Below are positions 96 through 13,542 of a DNA stretch of 24,749 nt, piece after piece. Numbering within the stretch: the stretch's first letter is position 1; each line of letters begins with the position of its first letter. The translations under genes were made by a program, and so were the position numbers. The notes beneath the pieces were generated by a model that worked only from the letters and a program-made list of their open reading frames with translations, was not told where the DNA came from and ran no database searches. The stretch is from Sulfurimonadaceae bacterium (GTDB lineage: Bacteria > Campylobacterota > Campylobacteria > Campylobacterales > Sulfurimonadaceae), in NCBI GenBank assembly GCA_041562555.1, contig JBFEXS010000022.1:1-24749 (forward strand). The letters are read 5' to 3'.

Positions 96-569
96 ATGGC
101 AAAATCGATTAAACGCTATAAGATATGGTCGCTTGTCACTTTGAGTCTACTCCTTGTGATGGGTGCTTATTTCGCTTTTAATCCCTCCTATCAACTCTCT
201 TTGGAAGCCAAGTTCTATTACTCCGTGGGAGACTATGAAAAAGCACATGTACTCTCCAGCGAGGCTTATGAGATGGAACCTTATAATCGTATGGCCCGTT
301 CAGTCATGGTGCAGAGCAAGTATGCCTTGCGTTATGTACATTATAACGCAGAAGCAAAGGAGTATTTAGAACAGATCCGTTCCTACTCCAAGCAAGAGAA
401 AATCTCACTCTCCGAGCAGATGCGCATCAAAATGATGTGTGATATCATGATAGACAAGCATGAGAAGATGCAACCTACGATCCTGATTGACAAAGCCTTG
501 GTTGATGAGGCACAAAAACATTATGAACAGTTTGTGAAGCTCCATGAAGACCTTGTTAGCGTCTTATAG
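96..569 (+). CDS. Hypothetical membrane-anchored helical (TPR-like) protein, 157 aa
   Basis: Strong RBS AAGGAG upstream of the ATG. N-terminal hydrophobic segment (IWSLVTLSLLLVMGAYFAF). TPR-like segment AKFYYSVGDYEKAHVLSSEAYEMEPYN. Confidence 0.8.
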   Translation: MAKSIKRYKIWSLVTLSLLLVMGAYFAFNPSYQLSLEAKFYYSVGDYEKAHVLSSEAYEMEPYNRMARSVMVQSKYALRYVHYNAEAKEYLEQIRSYSKQEKISLSEQMRIKMMCDIMIDKHEKMQPTILIDKALVDEAQKHYEQFVKLHEDLVSVL

Positions 570-1368
570 ACTCCCTTTTTTAGATTATCTGAGTGAGATA
601 CGGGGATATTCCGATCTTACGGTCAAAACCTATGCTACGACCTTGGATGAAGCGATGCAGCACGTTCGTCTGGAAGAGGGTGTTCTACAGCTCAATCCGT
701 ATCGATTACATATCGCTTCTCTCAATGCCAAGACGATCTCTAAAAAGCTCTCTGCCATACGGACATTTGTCACGTTTGTCCAAGACAGAGGTGAGAAGGT
801 GGCTCTAAAGGGCGATACGCCTATCAAGGTGGCGAAGACCCTTCCTAAACCGATTTCTAATGAGCATATCAAAGAAGCACTGCAGATAGCGGATGCACAG
901 GAAGAACTCATTATCGTGACATTATATACCCTTGGTCTTCGTATCAGTGAATTGGCGTCTTTAAAGCTTGAGCACATTGAGAAAGAATGGATAACGGTTT
1001 GGGGAAAGGGAAACAAACAAAGACAGGTGCCTTTATTGGAAATGACCCATGCATTAATTGATAAATATATAACAGAAAATAGACCCGGCACCTTTCTTTT
1101 TGAGAAAAATGGAGCTAAATTAAGCGAAAATAGTTTAAGATATAAATTAACATCACTGTTTAAGAAAATCGGCTTGCATGTTACACCGCATATGTTACGA
1201 CACTCCTATGCGACGCATCTATTAAACAATAATGCAAGAATTGCCGATGTTAGTGAATTATTGGGGCACTCTTCCATGGCGACGACTCAGATCTATACAA
1301 AGTTGAGTTCACAGCTTAAGATGAAGAACTATCAATCTGCCCACCCTTTAGCCCAAGGAGCCAAATGA
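544..1368 (+). CDS. xerC: Tyrosine recombinase, XerC/XerD family (XerC-like)
   Basis: N-terminal SAM-like part (FLDYL..IRGYSDLTVKTY). Full catalytic set R-K-H-R-H-Y: GLRISEL, GKGNKQRQVP, TPHMLRHSYATHLL, LLGHSSMATTQIYT. C-terminal HP motif (YQSAHP) typical of XerC/D. XerC versus XerD cannot be fully resolved by eye. Confidence 0.85.
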   Translation: MKTLLASYRLPFLDYLSEIRGYSDLTVKTYATTLDEAMQHVRLEEGVLQLNPYRLHIASLNAKTISKKLSAIRTFVTFVQDRGEKVALKGDTPIKVAKTLPKPISNEHIKEALQIADAQEELIIVTLYTLGLRISELASLKLEHIEKEWITVWGKGNKQRQVPLLEMTHALIDKYITENRPGTFLFEKNGAKLSENSLRYKLTSLFKKIGLHVTPHMLRHSYATHLLNNNARIADVSELLGHSSMATTQIYTKLSSQLKMKNYQSAHPLAQGAK

Positions 1369-2438
1369 AACTTTCTCGTCTGATTAAAAATCTTTATCAG
1401 CAGATTTTTATCGGGATCGTTGTCCAACAAAAAAGTGCGAAGGTCCGTGTTCAATTGCGCAAGGGTGACAGGATAGAAAAAGAGGTCTCCAGGGTATTTG
1501 AGATCTCGCGTTCAAAGCCAAGTGCCGAGATGCATGATTACATCAAGGGGTATACGGACGAATCTCCTTTTAGTTATGTCGCAATCTTGAATGATACGGT
1601 GAATCAAGGCGCGATTCCTACCTGTTCTATGCACGCGGCAGAAGAGTTTGGTGACCTTGGCTCATGTGTCACATTGTGCAATGAAAACAAATGGATGGTA
1701 TATGCCGAGAAAAGTGATCTGAACGGGCTTCAAAACAGATTTAAAGAGAATGGACTTGATTTTATTTTTTCTCCGTTTTTTGTCCTGTCTAACTTTTTTG
1801 CAGATAAGATTGAGGGCAAGACATCCTTGATGGTTCTGATACAAGAGGATTCTCTGAGTCTATGTATTTTTAATGCAGGCGAACTTCTTTTTGCAAATCA
1901 TTATAGAACCCATGATGCGATCGAAGATGAGACGATGAGCGCCGAGCTGGAAGAGAGTGCGGAAGAGAGTCTTGGTTTCAGTCTTGAAGATGATGACGAT
2001 ATAACCATCAATCTGGACGATATCGATGCTTTGGATGAATTGGATGCCCTGGATGATCTTGATAATCTCCAGGACCTGGACGATTTAGACGACCTGGATG
2101 AGATCGAGGATTTCGAAGAGTCGTTGAACGAAGCGGTTGAAGAGTCTGAAATGGCGCTTGAGGAAGCCAAGACAAAGTACGATTCCAAGATCGATAATTT
2201 TTCAGACGATTATAAACGGTTTCAGTTTATTCAAGCGGCTTTGCAGCAGTTTTATAATGATGCTAAATACAATAATCAGTTTGTTGAAGAGGTCTACCTT
2301 GCAGATGCCTGTGAATCGGGTCAGGACTTGACGCGATTTATCGAAGAAGAGCTTTTTGTATCGGTATATAAGCGCAGTATAGACCTGGATAAGGAAATTG
2401 TGAGTATGGCAATAAAGGAGGCGAAATATGAGATATAG
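1365..2438 (+). CDS. PilM-like cytoplasmic protein with an acidic low-complexity insert (probable flagellar cage component)
   Basis: 357 aa with no TM segment. ATGA overlap with the recombinase stop. First of a triplet whose other two members are single-TM coiled-coil proteins. The GLDFIFSPF..L and SLMVLI..SLSLCIF..GELLFA segments fit the PilM/GspL actin-like scaffold. The coding call is firm; the function is inferred. Confidence 0.6.
   Translation: MKLSRLIKNLYQQIFIGIVVQQKSAKVRVQLRKGDRIEKEVSRVFEISRSKPSAEMHDYIKGYTDESPFSYVAILNDTVNQGAIPTCSMHAAEEFGDLGSCVTLCNENKWMVYAEKSDLNGLQNRFKENGLDFIFSPFFVLSNFFADKIEGKTSLMVLIQEDSLSLCIFNAGELLFANHYRTHDAIEDETMSAELEESAEESLGFSLEDDDDITINLDDIDALDELDALDDLDNLQDLDDLDDLDEIEDFEESLNEAVEESEMALEEAKTKYDSKIDNFSDDYKRFQFIQAALQQFYNDAKYNNQFVEEVYLADACESGQDLTRFIEEELFVSVYKRSIDLDKEIVSMAIKEAKYEI
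2013..2120 (+). repeat. Degenerate 9-bp coding tandem repeat, 12 x [L/I/F]-[D/E/Q]-x
   Basis: Encodes LDD IDA LDE LDA LDD LDN LQD LDD LDD LDE IED FEE. DNA units include ctggacgat, ttggatgaa, ctggatgat and ctggatgag. Confidence 0.75.
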
Positions 2439-2943
2439 TTTTATCAAGCCTCGTCCCAAGAGTATTGTCAGTCCGGAGTTTAAGCTGCTCTTTTTCTTCT
2501 TCTCCATCACGATCGGGATGCTGCTTCTGTCATACTCCTTTTTAACGATCAAGACCTTGATGTACGAGAACAGTATTCAGGAGATGATTGCTAAAGGAGA
2601 AAGGCTCAAAGGGAACATTGTGTCGATGCATGAGGAGATCGCCTTTGTAAAGATAGAGAAACGTCATGCAGAAGGGGTGTACACAGAAAATACGGTGCTC
2701 AAAGAGAGTATTCATAACCTCTTTGACCTTGTTCCTGAGAAGATCACACTTTCACAGGCTTTGCTCAAAGAAGATGAATTGGTACTGTATGGCGTGACAC
2801 CAAGTAAAGAGGTCTATGAGTTCTTGCTGCAAGCTCCTTTGCGTTCTATCTTTCACCGTTCCTATACGAGTTATTATGCGATGCCAAACGGTTGGTACTC
2901 CTTTGTATCCAAAAATTATCTGGATAGGGAGATCAATCAGTAG
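2428..2943 (+). CDS. PilN-like single-pass membrane protein
   Basis: RBS AAGGAGG. Short basic N-tail (RYSFIKPRPK), one TM helix, a coiled coil, then a PilN-like alpha/beta segment (LFDLVPEKITLSQA..LVLYGVT). Confidence 0.65.
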   Translation: MRYSFIKPRPKSIVSPEFKLLFFFFSITIGMLLLSYSFLTIKTLMYENSIQEMIAKGERLKGNIVSMHEEIAFVKIEKRHAEGVYTENTVLKESIHNLFDLVPEKITLSQALLKEDELVLYGVTPSKEVYEFLLQAPLRSIFHRSYTSYYAMPNGWYSFVSKNYLDREINQ

Positions 2944-3500
2944 TGAAATTTCATATCAGTCGTCAAATGATCTATATCCTCTCCTTAGCGGTGATCTTTT
3001 TGATCATCGTGTTTATCTTCGCCTTCGCTTTTTTGATCCCAAGCGGAAAGAGTTATCGTATGGCCAGGATGGAGGCGAAAAAAGTCTCTTACCAGGTGGA
3101 CCTGATACAGGCTGAATATGATAAGGTACACGAACAGTTGAAGACTTTACAGGCGGATAACCGTCATGTGATAGGAGCCTATAAGACGATCTTCAACCCG
3201 ATCCGTTTTAAACAGATGTATGCCTCGCATTTTGAGAGTTTTACCCTGTCTGAACTGAGTTCTCACTCTCAAGACGGAGAGTTCGCAGTCTATGAGGTAA
3301 ATACCTCTTCTTTGATTCAGTCGCCGCAGGGGTTTTATGACTTTTTAGACGGTGTGAATAAGAGCGACAATATTATCGGTGTGAATTTTCCTATCGCTTT
3401 TAAACGGGATGGAAACCTTATTAAGTCTTCTTTCACAATGCATGTCTATGTCGCAGGTCAACATGAAAAGGCGCCTGAGACAGTGAAGACAGAGGAATAG
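2943..3500 (+). CDS. PilO-like single-pass membrane protein
   Basis: GTG start overlaps the upstream TAG (TAGTG). N-terminal TM ending in LIP, a coiled coil, then a C-terminal F..FLD.VNK..NII.V pattern resembling PilO/GspM. Confidence 0.65.
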   Translation: MKFHISRQMIYILSLAVIFLIIVFIFAFAFLIPSGKSYRMARMEAKKVSYQVDLIQAEYDKVHEQLKTLQADNRHVIGAYKTIFNPIRFKQMYASHFESFTLSELSSHSQDGEFAVYEVNTSSLIQSPQGFYDFLDGVNKSDNIIGVNFPIAFKRDGNLIKSSFTMHVYVAGQHEKAPETVKTEE

Positions 3501-3527: not shown

Positions 3528-4532
3528 CTATATTTCACAGGGTAAAAAGCGTACATACAGAATAAAAGCAAGTGGATATTTGAAAAGATAGGGGCGTAGT
3601 TTTATAGGGATTCCCAGGAGACGGCACTCTTCTTTGAAGGATTTATCCATGTTCTCATTAAGGTATGTACAGACCGTATAGATCCCCTGGTTCAGGGTGA
3701 TGAGAAATTTCCGTCCTACGACAAGTTCATGCTCATGCTTTAGGGCTTCACGCTGTGAAGCAGTCAAAAGATATCCCCTGGTCTTCAGGATCTTGTCGAT
3801 ATGATAGATGTCACTGCGCCGATGACCACTGGAGATAAACAGGCTCAGCTTGTCGGCTGTATGGACATCTACCTCTTTGATAAAATCTGAGATATCCTCT
3901 TGTAGATACCGGAAACTCTGTTTGATCCCTTCGCTATTGTCCTTGATCAGCTCATTGACGATTTTATGTCGGAAATAGTTGCGTTTATAGCTAAGGTCAT
4001 CATTGCTGGCATCATGGTACCAATGCAGCTTTTCTTTTCTGAGATAAGAGAGGATCTCTTCCTTACTGGTATTGATCAGCGGACGAAAGAGGGTATATGA
4101 GGGACGCTTTTCTATTTCTGACATACCCAGAAGTTCCGGCATTCCTGCGCCCTTGCTCAACTGCATCAACATCCATTCAAGACGATCTTGAAGATGGTGT
4201 GCCGTCAATAGGTAGGTGTATGCATGTTCTTTTATAAGGCTTTCAAAAAAGTTATAACGTATACTCCGTGCTTCACTCTCAAAGTTTTTGTCAACCTGGT
4301 GTGATTTTAAGCAGTGACATTGCAGCTTGTGATCGCTAGCGAGCCTATGGGCATAGGCAAGCTCTTCATCAGCCTGGGTGCGTAAGCCGTAATGGACAAT
4401 GGCAATATCAAAGGAGATCTTGTGATGAAGCAGAGTGAAGAAAAGTGCCGTGGAATCTGCTCCCGCCGAGAAGGCAAGAAGTACTTTTTGTTCATGCAGT
4501 ACAGAAAGCGCTTCTTGGGTTAAAAGTGACAT
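3528..4532 (-). CDS. tilS: tRNA(Ile)-lysidine synthase
   Basis: PP-loop LLAFSAGADS, plus FESEARSIRY, LLTAHHLQDRLE, RPL, D.SN....Y.RNYFR. Short epsilonproteobacterial form, adjacent to rimO. Confidence 0.93.
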   Translation of the reverse strand: MSLLTQEALSVLHEQKVLLAFSAGADSTALFFTLLHHKISFDIAIVHYGLRTQADEELAYAHRLASDHKLQCHCLKSHQVDKNFESEARSIRYNFFESLIKEHAYTYLLTAHHLQDRLEWMLMQLSKGAGMPELLGMSEIEKRPSYTLFRPLINTSKEEILSYLRKEKLHWYHDASNDDLSYKRNYFRHKIVNELIKDNSEGIKQSFRYLQEDISDFIKEVDVHTADKLSLFISSGHRRSDIYHIDKILKTRGYLLTASQREALKHEHELVVGRKFLITLNQGIYTVCTYLNENMDKSFKEECRLLGIPIKLRPYLFKYPLAFILYVRFLPCEI

Positions 4533-4538
4533 GTCTGC

Positions 4539-5888
4539 CTAGGCGATGACGGTTGCCAAGAGCTTGTCACCTACAACCTCAGTGATTCGGGCCTTGTAAA
4601 CTTTGGCAAATTCCAAGGAGATGTCATCACCGAGTTCATTGTCATTGACATAGATCTCACCGTCAATTTCCGGCGTCCAGCCTAGTTCTCTGGCAGAGAG
4701 CAGATACTCATGCTCGTCACTTTCACCGTCGATGACGATCTCCACCTCTTTGCCTATTTGTTTTTCCAAACTTTTTTGCATCACTTCGGCTGCGATCTCA
4801 CCCATGATTTCTGCACGCTCGTCGATAATCTCTTGAGATAGTTTACCTTCCATGTCGAAAGCAGCTGTACCTTCCTCATCGGAGTAGGCGAAGGTCGAGA
4901 TGCGATCAAAGCCGAAGTTGCGGGCAAAATCACACATCTCTTCAAACTCTTCCTGTGTCTCACCCGGATGACCAACTATAAAAGAAGTACGTAAAAAAGC
5001 ATTGGGAAGATTCTTCATGTATTCAAGCTGTTCGATCGTCTTATCCTTACCAAAACCTCGTTTCATAAGTTTTAGCATTCTATCCGAGATGTGTTGAATA
5101 GGCATGTCAAAATAGTTGTGAAATATCGGTGACTTGGCAATCTCACCCAGCAGCTTCATACTTGCTGTTGTCGGATAGAGATAGAGTAGTCTGGCAGATC
5201 GTACCCCTTCGATGAGTTCAATGCGCTTGATCAGGTGAATAAGCCCATCTTTGACATTCTTATCACGAAGATAGGAACTCGAGTCCTGAGAGATGAAAGA
5301 GAAGTCATAATAGCCTTGACGTACCAGAGATTCCACTTCTGCTGCAATGACATCGAGATCGCGTGAATTAAGTTTTCCTTTGAACGAGGGAATAGCACAG
5401 AAGGAGCAGGTCTGATTACACCCTTCAGAAAACTTGATATACGCATGGTAACGTGAACCGGTGATCACGCGCTCTTCATTTCCTATAAGGTAGGTTGATT
5501 CGGAAAACCGGCTCTGTTTTGCGGCAAGAAGGGCATCGATCTGATCATAATCACCAACACCGGTAAAGATATCGACCTCTTTCATCTCTTCTTGCAGTTC
5601 TTCTTTGTAACGTTCACTCAGACAGCCTGCCATGACAAGTAAAGAGTCTTCACGGCGCTGCTCATGAAGATCAAGGACAGTATTGATACTCTCTTCTTTG
5701 GCTGCATCGATAAAGCCGCAGGTATTGACAATAATCACATCGGCTTCATCACTTGCATCGGTCATTTCAAAATCACGAAGTTTTCCAAGCATAACCTCTG
5801 TATCTACCAGGTTCTTAGTACAACCAAGAGAGACAATATGAAGTTTTTTAACCGGTTTTTCCTCGGTAAATGTCATATTTTTGTGCAA
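4539..5888 (-). CDS. rimO: Ribosomal protein S12 methylthiotransferase
   Basis: UPF0004 cysteines (SLGCTKNLVDTE, VNTCGFI, AGCLSERY), radical-SAM CxxxCxxC (EGCNQTCSFC) and TRAM-region PEIDG. The TTG start at 5888 has RBS AAGGA; an alternative ATG lies at 5876. Confidence 0.96.
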   Translation of the reverse strand: MHKNMTFTEEKPVKKLHIVSLGCTKNLVDTEVMLGKLRDFEMTDASDEADVIIVNTCGFIDAAKEESINTVLDLHEQRREDSLLVMAGCLSERYKEELQEEMKEVDIFTGVGDYDQIDALLAAKQSRFSESTYLIGNEERVITGSRYHAYIKFSEGCNQTCSFCAIPSFKGKLNSRDLDVIAAEVESLVRQGYYDFSFISQDSSSYLRDKNVKDGLIHLIKRIELIEGVRSARLLYLYPTTASMKLLGEIAKSPIFHNYFDMPIQHISDRMLKLMKRGFGKDKTIEQLEYMKNLPNAFLRTSFIVGHPGETQEEFEEMCDFARNFGFDRISTFAYSDEEGTAAFDMEGKLSQEIIDERAEIMGEIAAEVMQKSLEKQIGKEVEIVIDGESDEHEYLLSARELGWTPEIDGEIYVNDNELGDDISLEFAKVYKARITEVVGDKLLATVIA

Positions 5889-5913
5889 ACTGAATCCTTA
5901 TATTAATCGTGCG

Positions 5914-5922
5914 ATTATAGCA
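5914..5922 (-). promoter_or_regulatory. Extended -10 housekeeping-sigma promoter for rimO-tilS
   Basis: Minus strand reads TGCTATAAT (TGnTATAAT), 25 nt upstream of the rimO start. Confidence 0.65.
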
Positions 5923-5965
5923 AAATGAAGTTAAAGATTTGCAGGTGAGAAGAATATGAAACCAT

Positions 5966-7918
5966 CTAAAGGTATTTTTTTAAGATTTCTCTTAAGAGGG
6001 TGTGATCGATCGGTTTGGACAGATAATCATCCATTCCTGCATCCAGGAATTTTTGTCTATCCTCTTTTAAGGCATTCGCCGTGACAGCTATGATCGGGGT
6101 GGATCGTTCAATATGGGAATGTTTTTCAAGTGCTCGTATTTTCTGTGTAGCCTCAATACCATTAAGGTTTGGCATGTTCTCATCCATGAGGATAAGATCA
6201 TATTTTCCCATCTGAAATGCTTCGACTGCTTCGATACCATTATTGGCAATGTCAAAACTGAGTCCAAACTCCTCGAGCAAAAGGGTCATAAGGAGTTGGT
6301 TGGAGACATTGTCTTCAACGAGGAGGACATGGCCGTATAATTGCGCTTCATCATCATCTGTCACCGTATCCGTATCATCTATATCGATTGCGGGTTTATT
6401 ATCATCAAAAAGTTTTAATGTCAGTGTAAAACTGCTGCCTTCACCGAGCTTGCTTTCAAGAGATATCTCTGCGTCCATCATCTTGGCCAGAGAGTTGGAG
6501 ATGGACAAGCCTAGACCGCTCCCTCCAAACTTTCTTGTGGTGGAGGTATCTTCTTGTTCAAAGGCATTGAATATGCGTTCGTGGTTCTGTTTTGAAATAC
6601 CGCATCCGTAATCTTTGACACAGCAATGCAATGCCTTGGCATCAGGATGAAAGCGGAGTGAAATGTCAATATGAGAGTCTTTGTAGGAGAACTTGATGGC
6701 ATTACTCAAGAGATTGGAAAAGATCTGTTTGATCCGTGTAATATCTCCATAGGCCGTCTGTGGGATTTGATCGTCGATCTCCAGGTTAAGCTCGATATTC
6801 TTGAGTTTGGCCTTTTGCCTGAATAGTGTTACGGTATTTTCAAAAGGTTCACGTGTATCAAAATGAATGTTTTCAATTTTGATCTTTCCGCTTTCAATCT
6901 TAGAAAAATCGAGTATATCATCAATGATTTCCATCAGTGAATTACCAGAGTCTTTGATAATATCGAGTTGCTGCCGCTTCTCTTCGGATTGTTCCTTTTT
7001 GTGCAAGATGTTGACAAAGCCTATAATGGCGTTCATGGGTGTACGTATCTCATGACTCATATTGGCAAGAAAATTTGATTTGGCGCGATTGGCATTCAGG
7101 GCATCATACCGGGAAGCCATGAGGGCTTTTTCTGCATTTTGTCTGTTCTTGATCTCTGCTTGCAGTGTCTGGTTTTGGTCGATAAGATCAATGTTCACGG
7201 CAATACGTGCGAGTACTTCCTCTTTGATATAGGGCTTGGTGATAAAGTCATTGGCTCCGGCTTTGAGGAATTCGATGGTGATGATAGGGTTGGAATGCAC
7301 GGATATTGCCAGGATCGAAAGATCAGTTCGTGAGAAACTTTTACGGATTATCCGGGTAAGTTCGGCTCCGCTCATGGAAGGCATTTCATAATCGATGAGT
7401 GCGATGGATATATCGGGGTGGTCTTTTAATATTTTAAGAGCACTCATCCCGTCCGATGCCTCGAATATCGTAAAGTTTTGCAGTGCCAACAGGCTATGAA
7501 GGGCATGACGGCTTGATTTGGAATCATCTACTATCAGGACCTTTTTGTTTTCATTGTGGATGATCCTGTTGATAGTCGCTTGTAAAAGTTCAAGTTGTTG
7601 ATCATCTTCAAGTACGATATAGTCAACGATATTTTTATCAACGATCTTTTCGCGAAGCTTTGGATGAAAACTTCCCGTCATAGCGATAGAAGGTATATTG
7701 TGTTTAAGAAGATAATCAAGGGCTTTCGCTTCGTCTTCAGGAAGATTTATATCGACAATTGAAAGAACGATCTGTTTGAAATGCTCTTTGACCAATACCT
7801 TGGCTTCCTCAAGATTATACGCTACGATAACATCATATCCTGCACCAAGCAGCGTCTCTTTTTCGTACATGGCAATGGTTTTATTATCTTCTATTACAAG
7901 TATCAGTTGTTTCATCAT
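5966..7918 (-). CDS. Cytoplasmic hybrid histidine kinase, REC-REC-HisKA-HATPase-REC
   Basis: Three receiver domains (VIEDN..VDINLP; IVDDS..IDYEMP..FITKP; LVEDN..MDENMP..YLSKP). H-box FLANMSHEIRTPMNAI, N-box NLLSNAIKF, G1 DYGCGI, G2 GGSGLGLSI. No TM helix. The start may be 7930, 7918 or 7915. Confidence 0.93.
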   Translation of the reverse strand: MMKQLILVIEDNKTIAMYEKETLLGAGYDVIVAYNLEEAKVLVKEHFKQIVLSIVDINLPEDEAKALDYLLKHNIPSIAMTGSFHPKLREKIVDKNIVDYIVLEDDQQLELLQATINRIIHNENKKVLIVDDSKSSRHALHSLLALQNFTIFEASDGMSALKILKDHPDISIALIDYEMPSMSGAELTRIIRKSFSRTDLSILAISVHSNPIITIEFLKAGANDFITKPYIKEEVLARIAVNIDLIDQNQTLQAEIKNRQNAEKALMASRYDALNANRAKSNFLANMSHEIRTPMNAIIGFVNILHKKEQSEEKRQQLDIIKDSGNSLMEIIDDILDFSKIESGKIKIENIHFDTREPFENTVTLFRQKAKLKNIELNLEIDDQIPQTAYGDITRIKQIFSNLLSNAIKFSYKDSHIDISLRFHPDAKALHCCVKDYGCGISKQNHERIFNAFEQEDTSTTRKFGGSGLGLSISNSLAKMMDAEISLESKLGEGSSFTLTLKLFDDNKPAIDIDDTDTVTDDDEAQLYGHVLLVEDNVSNQLLMTLLLEEFGLSFDIANNGIEAVEAFQMGKYDLILMDENMPNLNGIEATQKIRALEKHSHIERSTPIIAVTANALKEDRQKFLDAGMDDYLSKPIDHTLLREILKKYL

Positions 7919-7988
7919 CGACCTACACATAAACGTTAACTAACTATAATAATAAAAGGATTAAAAATAGATTTGTTTTTATAAGTAG

Positions 7989-8021
7989 ATACACAAACTA
8001 TACACATATAAATATTATCAT
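7989..8021 (+). promoter_or_regulatory. Putative msrPQ promoter: ATACACA direct repeat (11-bp period) plus -10 TATCAT
   Basis: ATACACA at 7989-7995 and 8000-8006. TATCAT at 8016-8021. RBS AAAGGA just before the msrP ATG. Confidence 0.45.
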
Positions 8022-8046
8022 TACAGATAAGAATAAAGGATATGTT

Positions 8047-9009
8047 ATGAACATCGTGAAAAGATTATCGTGGCAATTAAGTGAGCATAGTGTGACGGAT
8101 GAGGCTATCTATAAGCGGCGAAGAGACCTTATGAAGATCGCTGCTTTATCTGGGGCTGCTACAGTGCTTCCGAGTGTTCTGGAAGCCTCACCTGAGTATC
8201 CTGGAAAGGCATTGCAGTACAGTAAAAATCCAAATTATCATGGTCTGAGCCCGACAGATTATGCGAAGATCAGTACGTATAACAACTTCTATGAGTTCTC
8301 ACTTTCAAAAGATGGGCCTGCAAAGTTGGCGCATACGCTTCAGCCCGAACCGTGGACCATTGAGATCAGCGGTGAGGTAGAAAAGGCCATGACAATAGAT
8401 ATGGCGGAGATACTTTCAAAGTTTCCTTTGCAAGAGCGTATTTACCGGTTTCGATGCGTGGAAGGCTGGTCGATGGTGGTCCCTTGGGTAGGGTTTGAAC
8501 TCTCTTATCTGCTTAAAAAGGCTGGTCTGACGTCCAAGTCGAAGTTTGTACAGTTTCAGACGAAGTTTGATCCGGATATGTTTCCCGAACAAAAAGATGA
8601 AGGCTTTTTCGGTAATATTCCTTTTCCCTATGTGGAAGGTCTGCGTATCGATGAGGCCATGCATCCTTTGACCCTGTTGAGTGTCGGCCTTTATGGTAAG
8701 ACGCTCCCCAAACAGAATGGTGCCCCCATACGTTTGGTAGTACCGTGGAAGTATGGTTTCAAAAGTATTAAATCCATTACAAAGATTCATGTCAGCCAGA
8801 CACAGACACGCAGTACATGGAATGAAGTGAATCCCAAGGAGTACGGTTTTTACTCCAATGTGAATCCTGATGTTTCCCATCCCCGCTGGTCTCAGGCTAC
8901 AGAAAGACCTTTGGGCGCTTTTTTCAAGCAAAAGACGGAGATTTTTAATGGATATGGCGCTGAGGTCTCCCAGATGTACAAGGGGATGGATTTACGTGAA
9001 AATTTTTAG
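8047..9009 (+). CDS. msrP: Protein-methionine-sulfoxide reductase catalytic subunit (Tat-exported molybdoenzyme)
   Basis: Twin-arginine signal (KRRRDLMK..LEA). Conserved YNNFYEF, YRFRCVEGWSMVVPW, PYVEGLRIDEAMHPL, QNGAPIRLVVPWKYGFKSIK, EYGFYSNVNP.V.HPRWSQA.ER. Confidence 0.97.
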   Translation: MNIVKRLSWQLSEHSVTDEAIYKRRRDLMKIAALSGAATVLPSVLEASPEYPGKALQYSKNPNYHGLSPTDYAKISTYNNFYEFSLSKDGPAKLAHTLQPEPWTIEISGEVEKAMTIDMAEILSKFPLQERIYRFRCVEGWSMVVPWVGFELSYLLKKAGLTSKSKFVQFQTKFDPDMFPEQKDEGFFGNIPFPYVEGLRIDEAMHPLTLLSVGLYGKTLPKQNGAPIRLVVPWKYGFKSIKSITKIHVSQTQTRSTWNEVNPKEYGFYSNVNPDVSHPRWSQATERPLGAFFKQKTEIFNGYGAEVSQMYKGMDLRENF

Positions 9010-9018
9010 GATGAGTGA

Positions 9019-9615
9019 GTGAAGAAAATTATTTGGACCATAGCTTTTTTACCTTTAATATACATGGGATATAAATTGGCCTGGAACTTTGAATATCCAC
9101 GGTATGTATCAATGTTTATTTATGAACATGGTGGCTCTTTTCTGGGTAAGTCTCCGAATGACCCCTTGAAGTTTATGGCAGACCTTTTAGGTATCAATGC
9201 CATACATTTTCTCATTGCCACGCTAAGTGTTACCCCTTTGAAGTCCTATCTTAAGATCAATCTCATAAAGTATAGACGTCTGCTTGGGCTGTGGAGCTTT
9301 GCCTATGCCTTGATGCATTCACTTTTTTTCTTTATAGCCGACAATGGGGGAAGTATTTCGATGATGATTCAAGATGCCTATAAACGCCCGTTCGTCTTTT
9401 TTGGTCTGGTAGCCTTTCTGATCCTGGGTATGATGGCACTGACCTCATTTAAAAAACTCTATAGCAAGTTTGTCAAATGGCATAAACTGGTATATGTAGC
9501 AACCGTATGTATCGCTTTGCATTTTATGATGAGTCAGAAGGTGATAGGCCTGGACGTAGCTTTGTATGTGGCTGTTTTAGCCTCTCTTTTAGCCCTTCGT
9601 CTTTTAAAGCGATAA
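9019..9615 (+). CDS. msrQ: Protein-methionine-sulfoxide reductase heme-binding membrane subunit
   Basis: Directly downstream of msrP, GTG start. Ferric-reductase-like TM motifs TLSVTPL, YRRLLGLWSFAYALMH, KRPF, ALTS, H.LVY......LH. Confidence 0.92.
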   Translation: MKKIIWTIAFLPLIYMGYKLAWNFEYPRYVSMFIYEHGGSFLGKSPNDPLKFMADLLGINAIHFLIATLSVTPLKSYLKINLIKYRRLLGLWSFAYALMHSLFFFIADNGGSISMMIQDAYKRPFVFFGLVAFLILGMMALTSFKKLYSKFVKWHKLVYVATVCIALHFMMSQKVIGLDVALYVAVLASLLALRLLKR

Positions 9616-10746
9616 TCCCTGTAACTGCTTTTTAAGTCCGACAGCTGCCATGGCATATCCGCCATCAGCGGCATCAATGAAGTGCACTTGCGAGCCCATA
9701 CGTTCAAATACCAAACAGGTCATCAAGGCACGGTCGGTAATGTGTATCCCGTAGCATAGCCGTTGGGCTTCAAACTCTTTTTGCAGATAATTGACTAATG
9801 CTTCGCGCTCATGATGGTGTACGCAACAGGTCATACGCAAGATGTCATCAAATTTTTCCGAGTCGGTCGTCAGTGTGATTTGTTGTTTATATTTTCCCCA
9901 TCGTGTCTCTCCTGTCTGAATATTGAATCGCATCAAAAACCATCCCAAGAGATTGACTAACCAGATGTGCGTTGTAAACTTCATACGGGAAAGCCCCTTG
10001 TGATTTACTTTGGCTTCATGGGAAAGTGTCTCAGGGGAAAAAGAGAGTTTGAGTGTCGACTCCCGAACAGGGTTTCGTTGTTTATATTCTCCCAGATGCT
10101 GATTGATAAAGTGCAGGCTCTGCTTGTACACAGCCAGATCTTTGGCATAGATCAAAAGAGAGATCGTCTCATCTTTGTATGAGTGTATATCTTGCCAACG
10201 ACATTCCAATCCGGTGAAATCAGCTTCCAGAGGTTCGGCGGGAAGCTCATAGCAGTATTGGGGATCCTCTTTTATCATCTTGTCTCCCAGGGACATAGCT
10301 CCGCCCTGAAACAGTGCCTGGAAATAATCTTTGGATACTTTATGTTTAGCGACTTTGAGAGAGGTACCGCGGGAATAGAGTTCTTTGAGTTGGATGGAAC
10401 CTACACGCAGATGCATGTTAAAATGTTCTAAAGAGCGCTGCTTTGTCGCCAAAAGTGCCTTTTTGGCTTGTTGAAAACAGGAGGAGGGAACAAGGATAGA
10501 AGCGCCATCCCCTCCAAAGACATAGGGGATTTCTATTGCTTTGCAGGTATTTAGGACAGCGACAATGCATAAGGCACCGATCAGGTTGACGTCCTTATAT
10601 TTCCCTTCTATGATAGCCGCAGTGGAACCTTGTATATCGGCAATAAAAAGGTGCCAGTCCGGATTGAACTCACAATAGTGATCGGGGTTGAAGCTCTCAT
10701 CAAAACTTTCAAAATGAGAAAGATCTCTCCAGAAATCTTCACTCAT
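9604..10746 (-). CDS. DUF3095 family protein (class III nucleotide-cyclase-like motifs)
   Basis: Family hallmarks PDW...ADIQGST.AI.EGKYKDVNLIGA, PYVFGGDGA, DFTGLECRW, KFDDILRM, YGIH....ALMTCLV, VHFIDAADGGYAMAA..LK. Confidence 0.85.
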   Translation of the reverse strand: MSEDFWRDLSHFESFDESFNPDHYCEFNPDWHLFIADIQGSTAAIIEGKYKDVNLIGALCIVAVLNTCKAIEIPYVFGGDGASILVPSSCFQQAKKALLATKQRSLEHFNMHLRVGSIQLKELYSRGTSLKVAKHKVSKDYFQALFQGGAMSLGDKMIKEDPQYCYELPAEPLEADFTGLECRWQDIHSYKDETISLLIYAKDLAVYKQSLHFINQHLGEYKQRNPVRESTLKLSFSPETLSHEAKVNHKGLSRMKFTTHIWLVNLLGWFLMRFNIQTGETRWGKYKQQITLTTDSEKFDDILRMTCCVHHHEREALVNYLQKEFEAQRLCYGIHITDRALMTCLVFERMGSQVHFIDAADGGYAMAAVGLKKQLQGLSL

Positions 10747-10749
10747 TGT

Positions 10750-11439
10750 CTATTTTTTGATAAATGGATAGAGTTGGTTATTGGTGTAGATGAGCTTGTT
10801 AGAGAGTGCTTCAATGATATTTTTGTACATTTTCACAAAGGCAAGGGCATTGTTGCATGAGATATCGGAATGCATGGAAATACTCAGGATAAAAGCATCA
10901 TCGGAGCTGACAGTAGCTCGGGCTGTCCTGGGTTCTCCGGTGATCGCACCGATTTCACCAAAGACCATCCCCTCTGTCAGCGTAGTCAGATGTGAAAAAG
11001 GATCATCCCCCTCCATCTGTTCATTGAAGCCGTAAATATCGACCTTTCCATTCACGATGTAGAAGATCTCTTTTCCAAAATCACCCTGCTCAAATATATG
11101 AGTGCCCTTACTCGGACGGATGAACTCTGAAGTCTTTGTCAAGCCGACAATCTCTTCATCACTGAGATTATCAAAAAAATGGATCTTTTTTCTTACGGCA
11201 AGCAGCATACTCATTTCACGGGAGAGTTTTTCTCTGTCGATGGGATTGACCATTCCTCCGGGTGTTAGTAGTTTGGTCAGTTTGTCATATTTCATGACTA
11301 CAACCGAGGGAATGACATTATCTTCTAAGAGTATGATTTTTTCCATTCTGTAATCAATGATTTTTTGAACGTAATCAGCAGGTTCTTCTAAAAACTGTTC
11401 AGGAAGTAAGATTTCATCTGGATTTATGGGAAGACTCAT
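10750..11439 (-). CDS. Cyclic-nucleotide-binding domain protein with an N-terminal extra domain; no Crp HTH
   Basis: FFDNLSDEEI, G..IFEQGDFGKEIFYIVNGKVDIY, phosphate-binding cassette FGEIGAITGEPRTARA. The protein ends after the C-helix. Confidence 0.88.
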   Translation of the reverse strand: MSLPINPDEILLPEQFLEEPADYVQKIIDYRMEKIILLEDNVIPSVVVMKYDKLTKLLTPGGMVNPIDREKLSREMSMLLAVRKKIHFFDNLSDEEIVGLTKTSEFIRPSKGTHIFEQGDFGKEIFYIVNGKVDIYGFNEQMEGDDPFSHLTTLTEGMVFGEIGAITGEPRTARATVSSDDAFILSISMHSDISCNNALAFVKMYKNIIEALSNKLIYTNNQLYPFIKK

Positions 11440-11469: not shown

Positions 11470-11475
11470 ATTATA
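11470..11475 (-). promoter_or_regulatory. -10 element for the cNMP-binding/DUF3095 unit
   Basis: Minus strand reads TTGTATAAT about 30 nt upstream of the ATG at 11439, in an AT-rich divergent intergenic region. Confidence 0.5.
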
Positions 11476-11538
11476 CAACGTGAGTATTTTATGAAAATTA
11501 AATTAATCTTCTAAGTGTTAATATTCACGATAACCCTA

Positions 11539-11578: not shown

Positions 11579-12739
11579 ATTAAAGTACATGATCTTGTGA
11601 TATTGGGTGCTGGCGCAAGTGGTTTAATGCTTGCTACACAGCTGTTTGAGAAGGGTGTGAAAGATATTCTGATTCTTGATCATAATCCAAAAGTCGGTAT
11701 GAAGCTCAAGGTCTCCGGCGGTGGAAAATGTAATGTCACGAATGAAGATGTAAGTGAAGATAATTATTATGGGGATAAAGAATTTGTGAAATCTGTGCTC
11801 CATCGATATTCGCCGATGGAGCTTCTGTCTTTTTTGAAGCGTAAAGGTGTCGTCCCGAAAATACGCTCTCTTGGTCAATATTTTTGCCAAAAAAGTGCGG
11901 ATGAGGTCATTAATGCACTTAAGCAGAGCATTCCTGAGAATAGTATAAGACTCTCACGCAAGGTACATGCTGTACGATTGCATGAAAAAGGCTATCTGAT
12001 TCAAACAGATAAAGAGGAGTTCGCGACAAAACATCTTGTCATTGCGACAGGGTCAAATGCCTATCCCCAGGTTGGTGGTAGTGATATCGGTTTAAAACTG
12101 GCAACTGATCTTGAACATCAATCCCATGGGTTTACACCGGTTTTAGTGGGCTGGACAGTGCAAAAAGAGCAGTTTTGGATGAAAGAACTCAGTGGGATTT
12201 CTACTTATGTCAGTATCGATGTAGGGCACAAACGTCTGTTTGGAGATCTTTTGTTCGCACATAAGGGAATCAGCGGCCCGGCTGTTTTGTCTGCGTCACT
12301 TTATTGGAAAAAAGGGATGGTCGAAATCGATTTTCTCCCCAAGACAAGTCTTCAAGATGCATTACGAGAGCATAAGAAGCAGATCTCAACGCAATTGGAC
12401 CTTCCCAAACGTCTTAGCAAACAGCTATTGCAGAGTCTGAATATCGAAGACAAGGCTGTTAAGAACCTGACGAAAGAAGAGTGGCAAAGGCTCTGCGAAC
12501 TTAAAGCATATGCAATGGCTCCGGCCGGTAACTTTGGTCTGAAAAAGGCGGAAGCCTGTAGAGGGGGTGTGTTGACATCGGAACTGGATTCCGGGAGTAT
12601 GCAGAGTAAAATACACAAGAACCTGTATTTTATCGGAGAAGTTGTGGATGTTACAGGTGAGTTGGGAGGTTACAATTTTCAATGGGCATTCAGTTCAGCT
12701 GTCGTCTGTGCTGAAGATTTGGAACAAAAGTTGTTATGA
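11579..12739 (+). CDS. HI0933/BaiN (YhiN/RdsA-like) NAD(P)/FAD-dependent oxidoreductase
   Basis: GAGASG Rossmann motif, G.KLKVSGGGKCNVTN, VIATG..AYPQVG, LLFAHKGISGPAVL, GGV, LYFIGEVVDVTGELGGYNFQWAFSS. I placed the start at ATT 11579; the ORF track uses GTG 11597. Confidence 0.92.
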   Translation: MKVHDLVILGAGASGLMLATQLFEKGVKDILILDHNPKVGMKLKVSGGGKCNVTNEDVSEDNYYGDKEFVKSVLHRYSPMELLSFLKRKGVVPKIRSLGQYFCQKSADEVINALKQSIPENSIRLSRKVHAVRLHEKGYLIQTDKEEFATKHLVIATGSNAYPQVGGSDIGLKLATDLEHQSHGFTPVLVGWTVQKEQFWMKELSGISTYVSIDVGHKRLFGDLLFAHKGISGPAVLSASLYWKKGMVEIDFLPKTSLQDALREHKKQISTQLDLPKRLSKQLLQSLNIEDKAVKNLTKEEWQRLCELKAYAMAPAGNFGLKKAEACRGGVLTSELDSGSMQSKIHKNLYFIGEVVDVTGELGGYNFQWAFSSAVVCAEDLEQKLL

Positions 12740-12764: not shown

Positions 12765-13142
12765 ATGCATTTAAGTTTTGCACCGACGCACATTGTGAGT
12801 GCTGATGTCTCTGATGAGGTGATGTTAAATGCTCTGAAAGAGGCTTTTGATCTTCGATTGCGACGCCATGATGAGCCCAAAACAGCAGCCCTGAAAGAAT
12901 TAATGATCAGCGTAGTCCCTATGGAAGAGATTGCATCGTTGGGTATGGAACATCTGCCTTATTTTTTAGACTGTTATTCTGCATGGATAATCTTGGAGTA
13001 TCTCAATCGTCAGGGTACTATCTCCCTTACGGATCTAAACCTTCAGAGAATGTTTGATTTTGAGTATCTGGATGCGATCGTACGCAAATATGAAGATGAA
13101 TATGTTGGACTTGTCCAGAAGATGAGAAACTGTGGAACTTAA
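12765..13142 (+). CDS. Hypothetical protein, 125 aa, mostly helical
   Basis: RBS AAAGGTG. Fills the gap between two co-oriented genes and overlaps the Nudix start by 11 nt. No motif recognised. Confidence 0.7.
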
Positions 13143-13542
13143 GACACCTCTTTTATGTGTTGATGGAATCATAGAACTTTATGATGAGGGTGCCCTTCAG
13201 GGGATAGTATTGATCGAACGGCTTAACAAGCCCCATGGTCTTGCCCTGCCGGGTGGATTTGTTGATGTAGGCGAGTCCGTCGAATCGGCCGTGATAAGAG
13301 AGATGAAAGAAGAGACTGATCTGGATGTAGAGATTAAAGCTCTTCTGAATGTCTATTCAGACCCTTCAAGAGACCCGCGTTTTCACACCGCTTCCGTTGT
13401 CTATATTTGTAAAGCAGAGGGGATTCCGAAGGGATTGGATGATGCCAAAGAGGCCTTGGTGTATGCCAAAGGGGAGATACCCTTTGAAAAACTTGTGTTT
13501 GATCATGCACAGATTTTACGGGATTATCTTAATTATTCATAG
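13132..13542 (+). CDS. Nudix hydrolase (ADP-ribose pyrophosphatase-like)
   Basis: Nudix box [27 protein letters not shown], plus [12 protein letters not shown] and L.FDH motifs of the ADPRase/NrtR-N-terminal-like subfamily. Confidence 0.93.

Follow-up and report, generated by a model that had tools for sequence, protein, structure and literature searches.

The window analysed here, by which we mean the whole stretch of DNA, is 24,749 nucleotides of contig JBFEXS010000022.1 from a Sulfurimonadaceae bacterium. It carries, on the minus strand, a gene for a protein with a cNMP-binding domain (the CNB protein), followed by a gene for a protein of the DUF3095 family. The genes and features of the locus, ordered along the plus strand, are the following:

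9019..9615, plus strand, flanking gene on the DUF3095 side (ORF list)
9604..10746, minus strand, DUF3095 gene, 380 aa (ORF list; PF11294)
9607..10179, minus strand, predicted C-terminal palm-like domain, about residues 190-380 (AF2 secondary structure)
10267..10659, minus strand, predicted N-terminal palm domain, about residues 30-160 (AF2 secondary structure)
10507-10509, minus strand, codon of the candidate metal-binding residue D80, in the motif FGGDGA (motif position)
10636-10638, minus strand, codon of the candidate metal-binding residue D37, in the motif ADIQGST (motif position)
10747..10749, minus strand, 3-nt spacer ACA that separates the CNB stop codon (TAG) from the DUF3095 ATG (sequence)
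10750..11439, minus strand, CNB gene, 229 aa (ORF list; PF00027)
10915..10962, minus strand, phosphate-binding cassette FGEIGAITGEPRTARA, residues 160-175 (sequence and homologue alignment)
11470..11497, minus strand, TTTTCA-16 nt-TATAAT ahead of the CNB gene, promoter-like (10 of 12 matches; weak)
11597..12739, plus strand, flanking gene on the CNB side (ORF list)

The ORF list and the sequence agree with the layout given in the initial annotation, namely two co-oriented minus-strand genes 3 nt apart, flanked on either side by genes of the opposite strand. The junction of the CNB gene (10750-11439) and the DUF3095 gene (9604-10746) reads TAG-ACA-ATG, and no Shine-Dalgarno-like purine run lies ahead of the DUF3095 ATG. 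The short gap and the lack of a ribosome-binding site proper to the second gene suggest coupled expression, presumably through coupled translation, and the two genes may well be transcribed together. At its other end, the DUF3095 gene overlaps the plus-strand gene 9019..9615 by 12 nt. The pair had also been credited with a TATAAT of its own. The hexamer is indeed present (11475-11470, minus strand), but a scan of this AT-rich stretch gives 8 promoter-like sites, against 7.1 +/- 2.9 in shuffled sequences, and since such sites show no excess, a TATAAT by itself does not establish a private promoter. A scan for operator-like palindromes upstream yielded one short AT-rich palindrome and nothing else, and no riboswitch was found in the window with Rfam. 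The surroundings of the pair are housekeeping in character: MsrP/MsrQ and a flavoprotein gene adjoin it, and TilS-type, histidine biosynthesis and FtsH genes lie farther along. The GC content stays even along the window (0.38-0.47), and nothing in it points to an island.

The sole Pfam domain of the CNB protein is cNMP_binding (PF00027; residues 110-187, E 3.7e-11, with a score of 43.3 bits, above the cutoff of 27.5). In domains of this kind the phosphate-binding cassette is defined by Gly-Glu together with Arg-Ser/Thr-Ala; both elements are present here, and G161, E162, R171 and A173 are invariant across 28 aligned homologues. The top PDB sequence matches are the CNB domains of PKG and PKA-R. 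The AF2 model, with a pLDDT of 84-92 in the CNB part and 42-63 at the N-terminus, is closest in Foldseek to the CNB domains of PKA, PKG and CRP (E 4e-10). The description of the first gene as having an intact cassette and no Crp helix-turn-helix (HTH) was borne out by Pfam, PDB sequence matches and Foldseek alike. Indeed, no HTH family was detected in Pfam at E <= 0.01, the NCBIfam CRP model reaches 18 bits, below its cutoff of 266, the final helix of the model spans residues 198-220 of 229, and the HTH_Crp_2 domain that places a protein among the CRP/FNR regulators is absent after the CNB domain.

The CNB protein is thus built of about 70 N-terminal residues, the CNB domain, a C-terminal helix and a conserved tail, NNQLYPF. 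It has the CNB fold and the cassette in common with the PKA/PKG regulatory domains and the CRP/FNR regulators but, unlike them, it lacks HTH_Crp_2, a kinase-docking region and a channel, and bears instead the conserved 70-aa N-terminal region and the NNQLYPF tail. No family was matched by either of these parts: the N-terminal 75 residues gave no Pfam match at E <= 10, no PDB match and zero matches in the ESM Atlas. A Phd/YefM-like antitoxin fold, an idea that came from the order of strands and helices at the N-terminus, was set aside as unsupported, the model being of low confidence there. The protein is likely to bind a cyclic mononucleotide.

The product of the second gene matches PF11294 at full length (profile positions 1-378 of 378, E 6.2e-116, 388 bits), and its AF2 model has a pLDDT of 94.4 and a pTM of 0.91. 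Compared with the PDB by Foldseek, this model finds human soluble adenylyl cyclase (AC), the soluble domain of AC9, 6yii and Cas10, with probabilities of 0.97-1.00 and E-values of 2e-5 to 1e-3, at TM scores of just 0.3-0.4 and an rmsd of 14-16 A. The 21 best PDB matches consist entirely of 6yii and class III cyclases that have two domains in a single chain, and Cas10 comes next; the single-domain cyclases Cya2 (2w01) and a cUMP synthase (7r65) align over 145-157 columns. A palm fold of the cyclase-homology type is indicated by the probability of 1.00 reached with soluble AC, AC9 and 6yii. DUF3095 very probably has a cyclase fold, and its single chain is predicted by the model to fold into two palm domains resembling those of class III cyclases; the confident match of this predicted fold to two-domain class III cyclases is new.

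In the model, the elements of the N-terminal palm domain follow the order b1-a1-a2-b2-b3-a3-b4-b5-b6-a4, and by secondary structure D37 ends strand 1 and D80 lies in the hairpin between strands 2 and 3, where class III cyclases have their two metal-binding aspartates. The C-terminal palm-like domain has a helical insert at about residues 238-292; it has no Asp ending its first strand and keeps D295, K298, D300, H355 and D358. It may parallel a C2-type domain. When the N-terminal half was compared with the C-terminal half by hhalign, the probability of an internal duplication came to 0.2%, so the two-domain reading is taken from the fold and not from the sequence.

Sequence profiles would leave DUF3095 outside the class III cyclases. 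Pfam gave no match to PF00211 (Guanylate_cyc) and none to GGDEF, and no known cyclase was retrieved with NCBIfam, PDB phmmer or a PDB profile search. An hhalign comparison with the PF00211 domains found at two DUF3095 loci (L032 and L066) gave a probability of 0.2%, with a shallow alignment of 2 sequences. A RecA row in the PDB profile search was dismissed, as it consisted of four repeated 5-bit stretches. Once the family itself was removed, the best ESM Atlas matches (FBPase_3, Thg1) stood at 0.76, below the usable level.

Conservation is nonetheless close to absolute at a handful of positions. In an alignment of 230 family members that reaches down to about 31% identity, D37 and S41 are each kept in 229, and G79 and D80 in all 230; in the C-terminal domain D295, H355 and D358 are kept in 229, 228 and 229 sequences, respectively. 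A linker motif, ECRW, is invariant. The cyclase-like motifs that had been noticed in the second gene, ADIQGST with D37 and FGGDGA with D80, are thus conserved in the family, and the fold match adds to them. The position of these two aspartates in the model suggests that they are metal-binding residues. DUF3095 had been described as having no assigned activity, and a literature search by family name and accession turned up no paper on it and no activity; some sources label family members 'adenylate cyclase', but these labels are untested annotations. We lean towards DUF3095 being an active nucleotidyl cyclase or transferase, and are more doubtful that its product is a 3',5'-cNMP.

The nearest known structures are the human ADCY10 core (8coj, 4clp, 4usw) and AC9 C1-C2 (7pdd), which, like the DUF3095 model, hold two class III palm domains in one chain; in Foldseek they match it best, with about 480 aligned columns, E 2e-5 and a probability of 1.00. 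As in these enzymes, the first domain would present two conserved aspartates at the metal-ligand positions, and the second would lack the first Asp. DUF3095 differs from them in having no detectable sequence similarity, in the relative placement of its domains (TM just 0.3-0.4), in the helical insert of the second domain and in the invariant ECRW linker. A bacterial counterpart is 6yii, a class III adenylyl cyclase-like protein from Pseudomonas aeruginosa, which is also single-chain and two-domain (E 1.2e-4, probability 1.00, TM 0.37), but belongs to a separate sequence family and is called an ATP-binding protein in the title of its entry. The palm fold and a GGD-type hairpin are also common to GGDEF diguanylate cyclases and Cas10 palm domains; compared with these, DUF3095 is without a GGDEF Pfam match, an HD domain or a CRISPR context, and its first-strand DIxGST is nearer to class III cyclases.

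How often DUF3095 is found beside a cNMP receptor was surveyed in the best 80 of 585 confirmed DUF3095 loci, all from other species. No cNMP_binding domain was encoded by the adjacent gene, either upstream (0/74) or downstream (0/77), and this holds for the closest genome locus (L001, a Mariprofundaceae, 57% identity) and for the Aliarcobacter locus L060. Among the 2687 ORFs of these 80 loci, phmmer with the CNB protein of the window retrieved 1 ORF, and a profile of its family 2 weak ones at E <= 0.01, all of them more than 2.6 kb from DUF3095; the profile overlooked a Crp-like neighbour in locus L050 and would miss distant CNB domains. Fused forms did not appear either: the 120 listed near-length matches carry PF11294 only, and the best 150 DUF3095 representatives span 328-445 aa, with no fusion among the longer proteins. 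Other signalling neighbours were encountered, namely Guanylate_cyc upstream (2/74) and, downstream, RR-SpoIIE (3/77), a Crp-type HTH (1/77) and a phosphodiesterase (1/77). A family-wide signalling partner for DUF3095 was rejected, such neighbours being too few and confined to single taxa. A conserved cyclase-receptor pair in independent lineages was thus not found in these 80 loci. The initial annotation had proposed this survey of neighbourhoods and fusions, and had named the lack of repeated co-occurrence in other genomes as a refutation of its signalling module. Since none of the 74 upstream and 77 downstream neighbours carries cNMP_binding, this outcome was largely obtained outside the clade of the window; of the module, the CNB-domain protein and the cyclase fold stand, and recurrence beyond that clade does not.

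Within the clade, three further contigs from close relatives appear to hold both genes, as judged from DUF3095 and CNB clusters with equal longest-contig sizes (5848, 143126 and 131644). The comparison of sizes is a weak guide; among 9 related DUF3095 clusters whose contigs could fit both genes, 3 share their longest-contig size with a CNB cluster and 6 show no such match, which is weak evidence against the pairing. About 52 clusters at 71-84% identity make up the CNB family, and the clade of the window has about 11 DUF3095 clusters; therefore, the CNB protein probably exists without DUF3095 in many genomes. At 50% identity the DUF3095 family as a whole falls into about 1900 clusters, which are spread over cyanobacteria, Zetaproteobacteria, Campylobacterota, rhizobia (with 249 plasmid or chromid records) and others. 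In a rough neighbour-joining tree (Biopython, midpoint root, no support values), the DUF3095 clade of the window falls beside Zetaproteobacteria copies (Mariprofundaceae, Ghiorsea) and apart from the Arcobacteraceae copies.

The two genes could be adjacent and yet have no function in common. The CNB protein would then be a conserved regulator of the clade that responds to a cNMP made elsewhere in the genome, and DUF3095 a gene acquired sideways that came to lie just downstream and is co-transcribed with it, with no signal linking the two. We regard this as a serious possibility, somewhat short of probable: DUF3095 stands alone almost everywhere, with neighbours that vary by taxon, its copies in the window clade sit by those of the Zetaproteobacteria, and the CNB family is both more conserved (about 80% against 62-71%) and richer in clusters. 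Several observations weigh on the other side. The tight junction suggests coupled expression, the pair was seemingly kept in three contigs while DUF3095 diverged to 64-69% identity, the even GC gives no sign of an island, and an enzyme with a cyclase fold next to a cNMP receptor makes a functionally meaningful pairing. It might also be that DUF3095 has the fold and is not a cyclase, acting instead as an ATP/GTP-binding regulator or as another nucleotidyltransferase, for instance one of the GGDEF/Cas10 kind that makes cyclic di- or oligonucleotides; the CNB protein would then regulate it or be unrelated to it. Indeed, the fold is no guarantee of cyclase activity, because 6yii, a top match, was deposited as a cyclase-like ATP-binding protein. 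Cas10 (Csm1) chains match at Foldseek probabilities of 0.5-0.98, the FGGDGA hairpin is as close to the GGDEF/GGDD motifs as to the GD motif of class III, and many invariant residues (C182, R183, W184, H355) lie off the canonical cyclase positions. Yet the near-absolute conservation of D37, S41, G79, D80 and K159 in 230 sequences argues for catalysis over mere binding, DIxGST after the first strand is the class III pattern, and the best fold matches are adenylyl cyclases. On this evidence we hold a non-cyclase role to be unlikely.

The initial annotation had compared the pair with Pycsar antiphage systems, in which infection would trigger synthesis of a cyclic nucleotide and a CNB effector would kill the cell. 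In PMC11224242 Pycsar is described as a pyrimidine cyclase with a cyclic pyrimidine receptor, and TIR and TM effectors are named in bioRxiv 10.64898/2026.08.12.744502. In Pycsar and Pucsar a cyclase-fold gene adjoins a CNB-domain gene, as it does in the window, and Foldseek aligns the first DUF3095 domain with 7r65, a PycC-type cUMP synthase (probability 0.99, 157 columns). In addition, the CNB protein weakly matches PycTIR-type effector models of PADLOC (E 1.1e-6 to 1.8e-3). These matches are, however, confined to its CNB part (residues 97-223 onto model positions 31-145), and the 229-aa protein has no TIR domain and, by eye, no transmembrane segment. DUF3095 matches 0 models in PADLOC-DB, which is dated 2023 and does not cover newer systems. 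The analogy thus breaks down in three respects, the kind of effector, the PADLOC result and the genomic surroundings. In the window the receptor gene precedes that of the enzyme, the enzyme is a two-domain protein of 380 aa outside the PycC family, and the context, with its housekeeping flanks and even GC, is neither a defence island nor mobile and patchy. The searches gave no PHROG match, no phage record with a homologue and 0 viral structural look-alikes at E <= 0.001. DUF3095 is a widespread single gene, and the CNB protein is about 80% conserved across its clade. An antiphage system of this type is accordingly very improbable here.

We tentatively favour a clade-restricted two-gene operon in which this Sulfurimonas-like bacterium pairs a cNMP receptor with a cyclase-fold enzyme, a reading whose chances we put a little below even. 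That the two proteins are functionally coupled is possible to about the same degree, and a signalling role shared by them is plausible. In such an operon, DUF3095 would carry two class III palm domains in one polypeptide, the architecture of soluble adenylyl cyclase. Its first domain would most likely use Asp37 and Asp80 to bind two metal ions and turn an NTP into a cyclic nucleotide, and its second domain, in which the first aspartate is missing, would most likely provide substrate-binding residues. The CNB protein would bind a 3',5'-cyclic mononucleotide through its intact phosphate-binding cassette. It could then feed back on DUF3095, possibly by direct contact, or relay the signal by way of two conserved parts, its N-terminal region and its C-terminal tail. 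The context would be one of ordinary cellular signalling rather than phage defence.

A broader version of this reading, which we consider unlikely, is that DUF3095 proteins are unrecognised, widespread single-chain cyclases resembling soluble AC, and that one Campylobacterota clade, of vent or sediment type, has wired its copy to a dedicated receptor of a new type, in which a CNB domain is joined to a novel output region at the N-terminus. The DUF3095 product could in that case be a non-canonical cyclic nucleotide. If so, the two genes of the locus would make up a minimal second-messenger circuit, and the product of the family could be identified with the help of the receptor. As it stands, the CNB protein beside DUF3095 is the one genomic hint at the class of that product. 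Should the pairing be accidental, the cyclase fold of DUF3095 and its conserved catalytic-type aspartates would still stand, and the module would reduce to a local operon. Should DUF3095 be active, a function would be gained for about 1900 clusters across many phyla, including nitrogen-fixing rhizobia and many cyanobacteria, and the single-chain two-domain design of animal soluble AC would have a separate bacterial lineage, unrecognisable by sequence.

The initial annotation described two co-oriented minus-strand genes, encoding a receptor with a cyclic-nucleotide-binding (CNB) domain and a cyclase-like protein of the DUF3095 family (Pfam PF11294), separated by 3 nt and bordered by opposite-strand genes. 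The ORFs, the junction sequence and the strands of the flanking genes agree with this description:

8047-9009 and 9019-9615, plus strand: MsrP/MsrQ-like pair (Pfam, NCBIfam; MsrP, an equivalog model, above the NCBIfam cutoff)
9604..10746, minus strand: DUF3095 gene, an ORF of 380 aa
10750..11439, minus strand: receptor gene, an ORF of 229 aa
11475-11470, minus strand: promoter-like TATAAT, with TTTTCA 16 nt upstream (10/12 consensus matches)
11597-12739, plus strand: flavoprotein of the aminoacetone oxidase family (Pfam, NCBIfam), on the other flank of the pair

The TAG stop of the receptor gene is followed by ACA and then by the DUF3095 ATG. No purine-rich stretch that could serve as a ribosome-binding site precedes this ATG, so that the two genes are likely to be translationally coupled. 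At its 3' end, stop included, the DUF3095 gene overlaps the convergent MsrQ-like gene by 12 nt. The TATAAT attributed to the pair is present, together with its TTTTCA, and is a plausible predicted promoter, but such sites are no commoner in the window (8) than in shuffled sequence (7.1 +/- 2.9).

Elsewhere in the window, a XerC/XerD-like tyrosine recombinase gene (544-1368, plus strand) is followed on the same strand by ORFs 1365-2438, 2428-2943 and 2943-3500, with overlapping or abutting ends. Pfam and PHROG assign no family to any of the three, and their sole NCBIfam row is a weak match of ORF 2428-2943 to 30S protein S1 (E 6.9e-4; 18.7 bits, below the cutoff of 368); the region 544-3500 may represent a short operon of uncharacterised genes or the remnant of an integrated element. 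A 654-aa hybrid histidine kinase (5966-7930, minus strand) carries two receiver stretches before its HisKA/HATPase core and one after it. At 12765-13542 (plus strand), a family-less 125-aa ORF extends 11 nt into the start of a NUDIX hydrolase gene, and a Ser/Thr protein kinase gene (23795-24718, minus strand) lies at the window's end.

The identity of the second gene as DUF3095 is borne out by a full-length Pfam match (E 6.2e-116). The family is large, with 1906 representatives at 50% identity (E <= 0.001; 719 at E <= 1e-30) and at least 585 confirmed stretches in species-representative genomes. In rhizobia, homologues of 32-34% identity occur on megaplasmids or chromids in 249 records (e.g. 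Rhizobium binae p3, S. meliloti pSymB). There is no NCBIfam model for DUF3095. Some sources, including one older rhizobial plasmid record, annotate members as 'adenylate cyclase'. The initial annotation knew of no assigned activity; indeed, neither 'DUF3095' nor 'PF11294' occurs by name in the literature searched, which did not extend to subscription journals or Pfam clan notes, and within the same bounds the fold assignment described below appears to be unpublished.

From 38 sequences, AlphaFold2 yields a DUF3095 model of very high confidence (pLDDT 94.4, pTM 0.91). When this model was compared with the PDB by Foldseek, ranks 1-21 all went to single chains that combine two domains of the class III cyclase type. 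These chains are human soluble adenylyl cyclase, in many entries, AC9 (its soluble part) and the cyclase-like Pseudomonas protein 6yii (E 2e-5 to 2.5e-4, probability 0.97-1.00). Cas10 (Csm1) chains come next in the ranking, and the single-domain cyclases Cya2 (2w01) and cUMP synthase (7r65) match one DUF3095 domain. In the model, residues 32-160 form a strand, two helices, a hairpin, a helix, a strand, a hairpin and a helix, an order that we take to be that of the cyclase-homology domain; it recurs in residues 193-379 with a helical insert at ~238-292. DUF3095 thus resembles soluble adenylyl cyclase and AC9 in its predicted fold, one chain with two class III-type domains, but differs from them in that no sequence method (Pfam, PDB sequence and profile searches, alignment) links it to the class III cyclase family PF00211, and in that its fold matches have TM-scores of only 0.3-0.4 (rmsd 14-16 A), which we read as a sign of the insert and of two domains packed differently. 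No sequence similarity was detected between the N- and C-terminal halves.

The nucleotide-cyclase-like motifs noticed at the outset hold up as conserved motifs. D37 closes the first strand of the model, in ADIQGST, and D80 lies in the hairpin FGGDGA; among 230 members (the window protein, 149 representatives and 80 genome loci), D37 and S41 are each conserved in 229, G79 and D80 in all, and K159 in 228. In the second domain the first strand has no terminal aspartate, and D295, K298, D300, H355 and D358 are kept. We infer from this pattern a pseudo-heterodimeric cyclase with one catalytic site. On a separate axis from the partnership of the two genes, it is rather unlikely that this cyclase fold yields a product other than a cNMP, or serves for nucleotide binding only; 6yii, among the best fold matches, was deposited as an ATP-binding protein and not as an enzyme.

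The receptor was correctly described as a cNMP-binding protein devoid of an HTH domain: Pfam cNMP_binding (PF00027) matches above cutoff (E 3.7e-11), and the same scan returned no HTH. Its top PDB sequence matches are PKG and PKA regulatory domains, and the AlphaFold2 model (pLDDT 84-92 over residues ~70-220) retrieves the CNB domains of PKA, PKG and CRP by Foldseek (E ~1e-9). The CNB assignment is therefore confident. The phosphate-binding cassette, FGEIGAITGEPRTARA, is intact as claimed, with G161, E162, R171 and A173 invariant in 28 aligned homologues. A CRP/FNR regulator was ruled out, since only nine residues remain past the last helix of the CNB domain. Many positions are invariant among the 28 sequences in residues 1-70 (EILLPEQF..., ILLEDxVIPSxVxMKYD) and in the tail KLIxTNNQLYPF (residues 215-229). 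The first 70 residues and the NNQLYPF tail have no match in Pfam, PDB or Atlas and a low-confidence fold in the model; our guess is that they are output or docking surfaces. The family is narrow: the 72 proteins found comprise ~52 clusters of full-length sequences (71-84% identity, each of 228-241 aa) and a second group at 45-49% identity. The few names that sources supply point to Sulfurimonas and Arcobacter-type MAGs.

Within the window's clade, co-presence of the two genes was judged from the length of the longest contig reported per metagenome cluster. Three DUF3095 clusters share this value with a receptor cluster: P0003 with P0278 (5848), P0004 with P0280 (143126) and P0009 with P0272 (131644), at 64-69% (DUF3095) and 80-83% (receptor) identity to the window proteins. 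These contigs therefore very probably carry both genes, which on the 5.8-kb contig are necessarily close together. Six other window-clade DUF3095 clusters (P0002, P0006, P0007, P0010, P0011 and P0012, contigs of at least 2.2 kb) have no matching receptor cluster, which may be an artefact of how the cluster summaries are made. Despite its higher conservation, the receptor family comprises several times as many clusters as DUF3095 of the window's clade, which suggests that many genomes carry the receptor without DUF3095. In a midpoint-rooted tree obtained by neighbour joining, which carries no support values, the window's DUF3095 clade lies beside the Zetaproteobacteria copies and away from the Arcobacteraceae copies, consistent with lateral acquisition. 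The pairing amounts to a single juxtaposition, later maintained, not to independent recurrences.

Outside the clade, the recurring cyclase-receptor module first envisaged largely fails to appear. We surveyed the best-scoring 80 of at least 585 confirmed loci, calling ORFs by a simple longest-ORF rule and searching the ORF nearest to DUF3095 on either side for Pfam domains (E <= 1e-4 upstream, E <= 1e-5 downstream; the ORF was missing on the fragment upstream in six loci and downstream in three). A cNMP_binding domain was found in 0/74 upstream and 0/77 downstream neighbours. Among 2687 ORFs of at least 70 aa in these loci, phmmer with the window receptor gave one match, in L078, 2.8 kb from DUF3095; a receptor-family profile added L013 (E 1.3e-3, 2.6 kb away). 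The Crp-type neighbour in L050 went undetected by this profile, which could therefore overlook CNB domains that are only distantly related. Nor were fusions seen: all 120 listed near-length matches carry PF11294 alone, the best 150 representatives measure 328-445 aa, and none was found among proteins of 666-2000 aa, which is weak evidence. DUF3095 is thus a stand-alone gene across the family.

Its neighbours vary by taxon. In L001 (Mariprofundaceae), at 57% identity the closest genome locus among the matches listed, a leucyl aminopeptidase gene is situated 331 nt upstream and there is no receptor; a membrane transporter gene neighbours DUF3095 in an Aliarcobacter locus (L060), and the 14 genes annotated in a Rhizobium plasmid locus do not include a receptor. 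A divergent MurJ gene lies upstream in eight cyanobacterial loci (L002, L003, L008, L009, L019, L023, L024 and L039), and a receiver-SpoIIE (PP2C) phosphatase downstream in three (L009, L010, L019); synteny with MurJ or SpoIIE is limited to cyanobacteria. Downstream genes also include GCS2 in four Pseudanabaena-type loci and SfsA in three. A class III cyclase is directly upstream in L032 and L066, 2/74, too few for an association. In L032 (Hyphomicrobiaceae MAG, 4585-8625), class III cyclase, DUF3095 and type I phosphodiesterase/nucleotide pyrophosphatase genes are consecutive on the same strand; in L066 (Gemmatimonadota MAG, 4177-7155), a TPR-cyclase gene stops 3 nt ahead of DUF3095. On Rhizobium binae p3 (L081), the distance between DUF3095 and a class III cyclase gene is 1.8 kb. 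The L064 contig, labelled Paceibacteria MAG, is probably mis-binned: its downstream neighbour (244-aa Thioredoxin_2, equal spacing) matches that of Aliarcobacter L060.

We tentatively favour an operon, restricted to this clade, whose cyclase-fold enzyme and cNMP receptor act together; the receptor would sense the product of the enzyme or, alternatively, regulate the enzyme. That the two genes are only co-transcribed is nearly as likely. The suggested analogy with Pycsar antiphage systems, which rested on the gene layout, is very unlikely to reflect the nature of the pair: the receptor lacks any TIR or membrane part, its PADLOC matches are limited to the CNB domain, and no PADLOC model matches DUF3095 (the database is dated 2023, so newer systems fall outside its coverage). 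A role in defence is also disfavoured by the housekeeping genes around the pair, by the even GC content, and by searches that gave no homologue in phage records and no PHROG match.

What is new here is the predicted soluble-adenylyl-cyclase-like, class III-fold architecture of a family that sequence methods miss as a cyclase, and the proposed coupling of DUF3095 to a receptor that joins a CNB domain to a novel N-terminal region. As a 'module', the pair is less well supported than the initial annotation supposed; the finding is a useful and testable lead on a large DUF.
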